From the NCBI RefSeq assembly GCF_054482595.1, contig NZ_CM137008.1: a stretch of 64,000 nt of DNA; one strand, given 5' to 3'. Below, piece by piece: positions 52,498 through 55,319 of the stretch. The notes below the pieces were generated by a model. The model searched no databases. It worked only from the letters and a program-made list of their open reading frames with translations, and was not told the DNA's origin. The translations under genes were made by a program, and so were the position numbers. Within the stretch, counting starts at the first letter, position 1; each line of letters begins with the position of its first letter.

Positions 52498-53181
52498 ATA
52501 TAGCGCCTATAAAATTTAATAAATAATGACGCCCTAGTTAAACTTAAAGTGCCTGGTTCAACTATCAAAAATCGCTCACCCTTTTTCACCTGTTTAAAAT
52601 ATGTTCAGCAACCCATCTTGATGGCGACATCCTCTCCGCGATGATTTCAATAACATATTCTGTGTTGGCATATGAAATTTTGAGGATTACCCTACACTTA
52701 TAGGAGTTACCTTACAGGGGTTCCTTCAATTTGTGTTGATTTACGCGAGATAACGCTATGGAATTAAAGGATTATTACGCCATCATGGGCGTGAAACCGA
52801 CGGACGATCTCAAGACAATCAAGACCGCCTATCGTCGACTGGCCCGTAAATACCATCCTGATGTCAGCAAAGAACCGGATGCCGAAGCCCGCTTCAAAGA
52901 GGTCGCTGAAGCCTGGGAAGTGTTAAGTGATGAACAACGTCGCGCTGAGTATGATCAGATGTGGCAACATCGCAACGATCCGCAATTTAACCGTCAGTTC
53001 CACCATGGCGACGGTCAGAGTTTTAACGCCGAAGATTTTGATGATATCTTCTCGTCAATTTTCGGTCAGCATGCCCGCCAGAGCCGTCAACGCCCCGCCA
53101 CACGCGGCCACGATATTGAAATCGAAGTGGCGGTATTCCTCGAAGAAACGCTTACTGAGCATAAGCGTACTGGATTTGCCC

Positions 53182-54087
53182 CTATATTTCCAGACACCTG
53201 TTATCACTTAACCCATTACTGGCTTGCTGCCGTAGATATTCCCGTGGCGAGCGATAACCCAGTGCACTATGCGGATGCCATTCGTTATAATGCTCGAATG
53301 CCTCTGCAAGGTTCTTTGCTGCCGTTAACCCGTCTGGTTTGGGCATGACACTGATGTAGTCACGCTTTATCGTTTTCACGAAGCTCTCTGCTATGCCGTT
53401 ACTCTCCGGACTCCGCACCGCCGTGTTCTTCGGTTCAAGCCCCAACATCCGGGCAAACTGCCGTGTTTCATTAGCCCGGTAGCATGAACCATTATCCGTC
53501 AGCCACTCTACTGGAGACGCCGGAAGCTCGTTGCCGAAACGGCGTTCCACCGCTCCCAGCATGACGTCCTGTACTGTTTCACTGTTGAAGCCGCCCGTAG
53601 TGACCGCCCAGTGCAGTGCCTCACGGTCACAGCAGTCCAGCGCGAACGTGACTCGCAGTTTTTCTCCGTTATCACAGCGGAACTCGAACCCGTCAGAGCA
53701 CCATCGCTGATTACTTTCTTTCACAGCCACTCTGCCGGTATGTGCCCGTTTCGATGGCGGTACAGCGGGTTTTCGCTCAAGCAACAGCGCATTCTGGCGC
53801 ATGATCCGGTAAATACGTTTGGCATTGATCGCAGGCATACCATCAAGTTCGGCCTGTCTGCGAAGCAGCGCCCATACCCGACGATAACCATATGTGGGCA
53901 GCTCTCCGATAACATGGTGTATACGGAGAAGCACATCCGTATCATCTGAGTGACGGCTGCGGCGACCATCTTTCCAGTCATCGGTTCGTCTGAGAATGAC
54001 GTGCAACTGCGCACGCGACACCCGGAGACAACGGCTGACTAAGCTTACTCCCCATCCCCGGGCAATAAGGGCGCGTGCGCTATCCAC
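53182..54087 (-). CDS. insD: IS2 transposase OrfB (InsD)
   Basis: 301-aa ORF with DDE-type integrase core, matches recalled IS2 InsD. Confidence 0.85.
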
Positions 54088-54410
54088 TTTTTTGCACGCC
54101 CGTATTCAACGGCTTCTTTAAGGAGTTCATTTTCCATCGTTTTTTTGCCGAGCAGGCGCTGGAGTTCTTTAATCTGCTTCATGGCGGCAGCAAGTTCAGA
54201 GGCAGGAACGACCTGTTCTCCTGCGGCCACAGCAGTAAGACTTCCCTCCTGGTATTGCTTGCGCCAGAGAAATAACTGGCTGGCTGCCACACCGTGTTGC
54301 CGGGCAACAAGGGAGACTGTCATTCCCGGTTCAAAACTCTGCTGAACAATAGCGATCTTTTCCTGTGTAGTACGCCGTCTGCGTTTCTCCGGTCCTAAGA
54401 CATCAATCAT
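54045..54410 (-). CDS. insC: IS2 OrfA (InsC)
   Basis: 121-aa ORF from [13 protein letters not shown]; overlaps insD as expected for programmed frameshift. Confidence 0.85.
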
Positions 54411-55013
54411 CTGCTCTCCAATGACTAGTCTAAAAACTAGTATTAAGACTATCACTTAAATAAGTGATATTGGTTGTCTGGAGATTCAGGGGGCCAGTCT
54501 ACGTACCATCAGCTATAACCTGCCGGTTTATAACGCCTTTGGCATGATCGAACAGGAAATCCCGAAAACGCTGAATGTGAAGATCCCGGCAGGCGTCGGC
54601 AATGGTCAACGTATCCGCCTGAAAGGCCAGGGGACGCCGGGCGAAAACGGCGGTCCAAATGGCGACCTGTGGCTGGTGATTCATATTGCGCCACATCCGC
54701 TGTTTGATATTGTCGGCCAGGATCTGGAAATTGTGGTGCCGGTTAGCCCGTGGGAAGCGGCGCTGGGTGCTAAAGTCACCGTTCCAACACTGAAAGAAAG
54801 CATTTTGCTGACTATCCCGCCTGGCAGCCAGGCCGGGCAACGATTGCGCGTTAAAGGCAAAGGTCTGGTGAGCAAAAAACAGACCGGCGATCTGTATGCG
54901 GTACTGAAAATCGTGATGCCGCCGAAACCGGATGAAAACACTGCCGCGCTGTGGCAGCAACTGGCAGACGCCCAGTCGTCTTTTGATCCACGTAAAGATT
55001 GGGGGAAAGCATA

Positions 55014-55319
55014 ATGGCTAATGTTACGGTGACTTTTACTATTACCGAATTTTGCCTGCATACCGGCATCTCTGAAGAGGAATTGAATGAAATTGTCGGT
55101 TTGGGGGTGGTTGAACCGCGTGAGATCCAGGAAACAACCTGGGTATTTGACGACCATGCCGCCATTGTGGTGCAACGCGCGGTACGTCTACGTCATGAAC
55201 TGGCTCTGGACTGGCCGGGGATCGCGGTGGCGCTGACGTTAATGGATGATATTGCGCACCTGAAGCAGGAAAACCGCCTGCTGCGCCAGCGGCTTTCCCG
55301 GTTTGTAGCTCATCCGTGA
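55014..55319 (+). CDS. cbpM: CbpA modulator CbpM
   Basis: 101-aa ORF from [13 protein letters not shown] overlapping cbpA stop. Confidence 0.85.

Follow-up and report, generated by a model that had tools for sequence, protein, structure and literature searches.

The cbpA gene in the 64,000-nucleotide stretch of DNA analysed here (referred to as the window) is interrupted within codon 138 by a complete copy of IS2, and we attribute this allele, with a probability of roughly 93%, to a very recent and genuine transposition of an active IS2 copy in an Escherichia coli strain close to XH990. Exact element ends, a precise 5-bp target duplication and collinear flanks occur together at this site, which argues for genuine transposition, and the decisive evidence for the insertion is the empty site of XH990, which carries a single CGTAC in an otherwise gap-free alignment.

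Direct inspection of the junctions (Table 1) revealed that the CGTAC repeats abut both ends of the element, the sixth base already differing, and that the insertion point lies after nucleotide 413 of cbpA, i.e. after 137 full codons plus two nucleotides. The first-pass annotation of this DNA had proposed a 1331-bp IS2 flanked by CGTAC direct repeats and a break after about codon 138 of cbpA, and both the length and the repeats proved exact to the base. As two given positions would share a 5-mer by chance in about 1 of 1024 trials, as CGTAC occurs only 49 times in the 64 kb of the window and as a target duplication of 5 bp is characteristic of IS2, the CGTAC duplication at the cbpA site is beyond chance. 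IS2 would have entered by its usual copy-out, paste-in route through a minicircle, and repair of the staggered cut in the target would have produced the 5-bp duplication. In silico excision of IS2 together with one CGTAC gave a 921-nt open reading frame encoding a CbpA of 306 amino acids, in which Pfam recognized the J-domain at residues 5–66 and DnaJ_C at residues 120–276. This domain map and the restored frame agree with the earlier description of cbpA as split into a J-domain part and a remainder.

Table 1. Positions of the features of the IS2-interrupted cbpA locus in the window.
Feature	Position	Strand	Remarks
yccE–cbpA intergenic region, cbpA regulatory region	52498–52757	+	Undisturbed; identical to XH990 in gap-free alignment
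Interrupted cbpA, start codon to stop codon	52758–55014	+	IS2 within
cbpA 5' fragment, codons 1–137 plus 2 nt	52758–53170	+	J-domain, linker, ∼18 CTDI residues, R116
Chimeric ORF, 196 aa (CbpA 1–138 plus 58 IS2-antisense residues)	52758–53348	+	From the ORF list
Candidate hybrid outward promoter	53164–53192	−	IRR −35 TGGAAA (53187–53192), 17-bp spacer, TACGCT (53164–53169)
Left target-site duplication copy, CGTAC	53166–53170		Read from the sequence
Complete IS2, 1331 bp	53171–54501	−	Transposase genes antisense to cbpA
IRR, 41-bp right inverted repeat	53171–53211	−	40/41 versus published IRR, T27C
orfB (InsD, 301 aa), catalytic DDE transposase part	53182–54087	−	NF006918, Pfam rve and rve_3
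orfA (InsC, 121 aa), repressor/DNA-binding	54045–54410	−	NF006928, identical to K-12 InsC1
A6G slippery site, programmed −1 frameshift	54087–54093	−	IS2 positions 409–415
IRL, 42-bp left inverted repeat	54460–54501	−	41/42 versus published IRL, A42T
Right target-site duplication copy, CGTAC	54502–54506		Read from the sequence
cbpA 3' fragment, codons 137–306 plus stop	54502–55014	+	Most of CTDI, CTDII with W287/L290
cbpM, 101 aa, intact	55014–55319	+	NCBIfam NF007617, Pfam MerR_2 (PF13591)

The element is an intact IS2 (IS3 family, IS2 group) and represents a common natural isoform. Its assignment to IS2 in the first-pass annotation was upheld by the terminal repeats, the orfA/orfB arrangement, the A6G site, the DDE triad and the IS2-specific NCBIfam models, all of which fit. 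InsD scored 709.7 bits against NF006918 (‘IS2 transposase TnpB’, cut-off 597) and InsC 276.4 bits against NF006928 (‘IS2 repressor TnpA’, cut-off 229), and the Pfam rve profile aligned over positions 3–102 of 102 in the orfB product. When OrfAB was rebuilt across the frameshift it comprised 409 amino acids, and D240, D306 and E342 were all found at their published positions (frameshift motif and catalytic residues according to PMC3219604). IRR has a CA-3' terminus on the transposase strand, carries the outward-facing −35 element and abuts the cbpA 5' fragment, and the IRL side of IS2 faces the cbpA 3' fragment and cbpM. With the published inverted repeats taken for comparison (PMC3299598), the window copy differs from the canonical element by T27C in IRR (position 53197) and by TT in place of AA at IRL positions 42–43 (54459–54460). 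The latter changes fall, immediately upstream of the weak promoter PIRL, in the 39–48 sequence, to which the OrfA repressor reportedly binds. IS2A of E. coli K-12 MG1655 (NC_000913.3, 381260–382590) is likewise 1331 bp long, aligns without indels and shares with the window copy the layout IRL, orfA, A6G site, orfB and IRR, an identical InsC and a 5-bp duplication, but the two copies are separated by 59 substitutions (95.6% identity), leading to ∼13 amino-acid changes in InsD.

The empty site was directly visible in E. coli XH990 (...CATAAGCGTACCATCAGC...), with one CGTAC only. Apart from IS2, the window could be aligned with XH990 over about 60 kb without a gap and with eight substitutions, seven of them in the 53,170 bp to the left of the element and one in the 7,179 bp to its right; a 7,999-bp comparison of the restored window was likewise gap-free and contained three mismatches. 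The restored cbpA DNA matched the annotated cbpA of XH990 with 100% identity, and the gene order yccE, cbpA–cbpM, torD–torA–torC was that of the annotated XH990 region. The cbpA–cbpM–torD region of strain TUM18780 was 100% identical to the window, and the cbpA 3' fragment was 100% identical to the intact cbpA of XH990, TUM18780 and others. Up to position 61680, IS2 is the sole structural difference of the window from its very close relative XH990.

Collinearity with XH990 stops at position 61680, just beyond torT. The following 2.3 kb (61681–64000), which include an open reading frame for a hypothetical protein of 200 amino acids at 62227–62829, are identical to DNA of strains EC5502, CREC-2 and 4FM, where the segment runs, via hypothetical genes and then tail-fibre genes, into a lambdoid prophage that adjoins torT at the place where XH990 has torS. 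The same segment is also present on a plasmid of strain SM107.

Copies identical to the window IS2 over all 1331 bases were found at many sites, both in E. coli chromosomes and on plasmids of E. coli and Klebsiella, and TUM18780 holds one such exact copy; the number of places occupied by IS2 in an E. coli genome had a median of 4 and a maximum of 41. The exact copies at many other sites suggest that this isoform is circulating and active and that the insertion is young, and a recent event fits the zero divergence of the window IS2 from its sister copies. The claim of the first-pass annotation that the insertion is recent and clean stands on these exact copies, on the gap-free flanks and on the single-CGTAC empty site of XH990.

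The native cbpA promoters P1 and P2 and the Fis sites have been described upstream of the gene (PMC3547828). From the native stationary-phase promoter, the interrupted gene would give rise to a 196-amino-acid chimera in which the J-domain and the R116-containing linker are followed by the first ∼18 CTDI residues and by a tail of 58 IS-encoded residues, as the frame ends at the first in-frame stop in IS2 (53346–53348). In this chimera Pfam detected the J-domain alone, and the NCBIfam model of the curved DNA-binding protein (NF007618) was aligned over positions 1–138 of 306. A single protein of ∼306 amino acids that unites the J-domain and the DnaJ C-terminal domains is not encoded by the locus as it is and was obtained after in silico removal of IS2. 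At its 5' end, the cbpA 3' fragment lacks both a promoter and a start codon; in its reading frame, an ATG is first encountered at 54544. With codon 138 broken by the insertion and the chimera scoring 287 bits against NF007618, under the cut-off of 403, cbpA of this strain is, judged by its sequence, a pseudogene and not a functional CbpA member.

The J-domain of CbpA binds DnaK and CbpM, and dimerization, without which CbpA does not bind DNA, takes place via W287 and L290 of CTDII (PMC4344490). Because the chimera is devoid of most of CTDI and all of CTDII, it would be unable to dimerize, to aggregate DNA and to hold substrates, and thus the handling of substrates by the co-chaperone, its dimerization and its DNA binding and aggregation should be lost; we infer that the outcome is a cbpA null or, at best, partial-function allele. 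A J-domain–linker fragment with an IS-encoded tail may nevertheless persist. Group III mutations at T133–K136, i.e. beside the break, already abolish the CbpA–CbpM interaction, which was ascribed by the authors to lost structural integrity (PMC4344490), and therefore the chimera may be unstable. Functionally, the allele is expected to resemble a knockout such as that of engineered cbpA deletion strains. In contrast to a clean deletion, however, it leaves the promoter and the sequence for the J-domain and linker in place, from which a truncated protein could arise.

The adjacent cbpM gene is intact, and its product scored 199 bits over positions 1–101 of 101 against NF007617 (chaperone modulator CbpM, cut-off 138). 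Its ATG overlaps the cbpA stop codon in the sequence TAATG (55012–55016), and a G-rich, Shine-Dalgarno-like stretch is located 5–12 nt upstream of the gene. The operon structure of cbpA–cbpM has been described (PMC4063869). As about 1.2 kb of antisense-IS2 RNA between the early stop and cbpM would go untranslated, expression of the co-transcribed gene would be lowered, and we infer that it is probably strongly reduced or absent through transcriptional polarity. Classic polar insertions are those of IS1 and IS2 in gal and lac; likewise, with an IS in the leading gene of a two-gene operon, translation meets early stops and expression of the distal gene is expected to be lowered. The first-pass annotation had left two courses for cbpM, read-out from IS2 or lack of expression; the second, whether complete or as a strong reduction, is the likelier one, and the first is disfavoured, the −35 element in IRR and the transposase genes pointing away from cbpM. 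The shift in CbpA/CbpM stoichiometry that it had envisaged is moot, since full-length CbpA cannot be made at all.

A regulatory insertion, in which outward transcription from IS2 drives cbpM and possibly a C-terminal CbpA from the ATG at 54544 and leaves free CbpM, was weighed against this polar effect. The outward −35 hexamer of IS2 lies in IRR and can form fusion promoters with flanking DNA, as documented for ampC, acrEF and a kanamycin-resistance gene (PMC9330008), and together with a −10 element in IRL it constitutes the IS2 junction promoter Pjunc, for which a 17-bp spacer is required (PMC3299598). In the window this documented −35 element is directed away from cbpM, as are the transposase genes. 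From about position 53400 up to cbpM, a default consensus scan called no + strand promoter, and promoter and terminator matches across 52400–55500 showed no excess over shuffled sequence, with none at either junction. Read-out into cbpM would be favoured by one weak 8/12 match (TTAAGA-17-GATATT) that a relaxed scan detected on the + strand inside IRL, and, given the Shine-Dalgarno-like sequence of cbpM, any transcript passing through or starting in IS2 could be translated. Since the IRR −35 element faces away and the default scan yielded no promoter at the right junction, read-out from IS2 into cbpM is unlikely, and so is an accumulation of free CbpM, a protein that is reportedly proteolytically unstable. 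We consider the regulatory reading as a whole improbable.

At the left junction, the −35 element of IRR is combined with a candidate −10 sequence, TACGCT, which is located in the cbpA flank and is partly made of the duplicated target. Such a hybrid promoter would, speculatively and by its geometry only, read antisense to the 5' end of cbpA and toward yccE in the sense orientation. A gain of function could be conceived on either of two grounds, namely a stable chimera that works on DnaK or sequesters CbpM, or antisense RNA driven by the hybrid promoter across the 5' end and promoter of cbpA and into yccE, and we see only a small chance for it. The J-domain with its R26/R30/H33 surface contacting DnaK and CbpM (PMC4344490) is wholly kept in the chimera, the 17-bp spacing of the hybrid promoter is that required for Pjunc (PMC3299598), its −10 candidate keeps T1, A2 and T6, and yccE follows in the same orientation after another 670 bp. 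The −10 candidate, however, agrees with the consensus at 3/6 positions and remained below the threshold of the consensus scan, the chimera, broken at residue 138 and ending in a nonsense tail of 58 residues, may misfold and be degraded, for which the T133–K136 mutations are a precedent (PMC4344490), and the allele gives no sign of selection, being present in a single genome. There is an equally slight prospect that both effects act jointly, i.e. that a stationary-phase-induced, unregulated J-domain–linker protein is accompanied by antisense transcription from the hybrid promoter across the cbpA promoter, switching on the normally silent yccE. Were this joint effect true, the insertion would be more than a knockout, the J-domain–linker protein perturbing DnaK or soaking up remaining CbpM.

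The rarity of the allele was directly apparent from its distribution. A 160-bp probe for the cbpA–IS2 junction (≥80% coverage) had no match in 5,426 complete E. coli genomes, cbpA was contiguous in all of the 5,420 that carry the gene, and the exact 196-amino-acid chimeric product had no record in public assemblies. The cbpA::IS2 allele is private and new to the collections searched; the mechanism is already known. A C-terminal CbpA product of 156 amino acids, starting from an internal methionine, is annotated as a gene in its own right in 102 blocks of the public collection. It was considered as a product of the same allele, which was rejected because in the 10 loci listed one cbpA fragment follows immediately on the other and no IS separates them. 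In these 10 draft or metagenome loci (L010–L019) cbpA is split by a frameshift around codons 128–152, and as neighbouring genes are fragmented too in several of the assemblies, the frameshift-split calls are likely to reflect sequencing error. With cbpA contiguous in all 5,420 genomes, its disruption in nature is rare, which would fit purifying selection on a gene not needed under laboratory conditions.

The insertion may stem from laboratory culture or be present in part of the population only, and its sequence would then match that of a natural, fixed allele. That an IS2 repeat was misplaced at contig joining and the real cbpA is intact is hardly credible: repeats such as the multi-copy IS2 are a classic cause of misjoins and the junction was found in no other public assembly searched, but a misjoin makes no precise 5-bp target duplication around an element with exact published termini, both flanks are collinear with the same relative, XH990, and only real transposition predicts the duplication, the exact ends and the collinear flanks together.

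Insertions of the same element family were detected in the same 2-kb neighbourhood in seven complete genomes (LR-21-1, ET650, ML35, FJ_Ec_21, YZ_2_2, CFSAN061772 and 19KM1863). In contrast to the present allele, they hit yccE or its start-codon region and leave cbpA and cbpM intact in all seven. They occupy five positions, equivalent to 51347, 51789, 52283, 52486 and 52497 of the window, each with its own 5-bp duplication; as only same-strand pieces were joined in this search, the count of yccE insertions is a lower bound. Because the yccE-borne copies are only 95.6–98.2% identical to the window IS2, these insertions are regarded as independent of the cbpA event. All seven share the orientation of the window IS2, but this common orientation was rejected as a biological signal, copies of opposite orientation being unlisted by a same-strand search. 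The GC content of yccE (51241–52497, − strand) is 33% versus 53% for cbpA, and these data suggest that the AT-rich yccE is a recurrent target of IS2. YccE itself (51244–52497, − strand) was without a Pfam domain. The stretch DGDGYCLLRAI at about residues 205–215 may resemble the motif around the catalytic Cys in OTU-type cysteine proteases, but YccE as an OTU-like protease found no support from Pfam at E ≤ 10 or from a PDB sequence search.

The transposition of IS2 into cbpA is, in summary, a textbook insertion that creates a pseudogene, an ordinary knockout involving an element and a gene that are already fully known, and it has no bearing on how IS2 or CbpA works. The annotation should list cbpA as a pseudogene disrupted by IS2. 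The strain should be regarded as a natural cbpA mutant, probably with low CbpM as well, and could offer a natural setting in which to test the contribution of CbpA in stationary phase.
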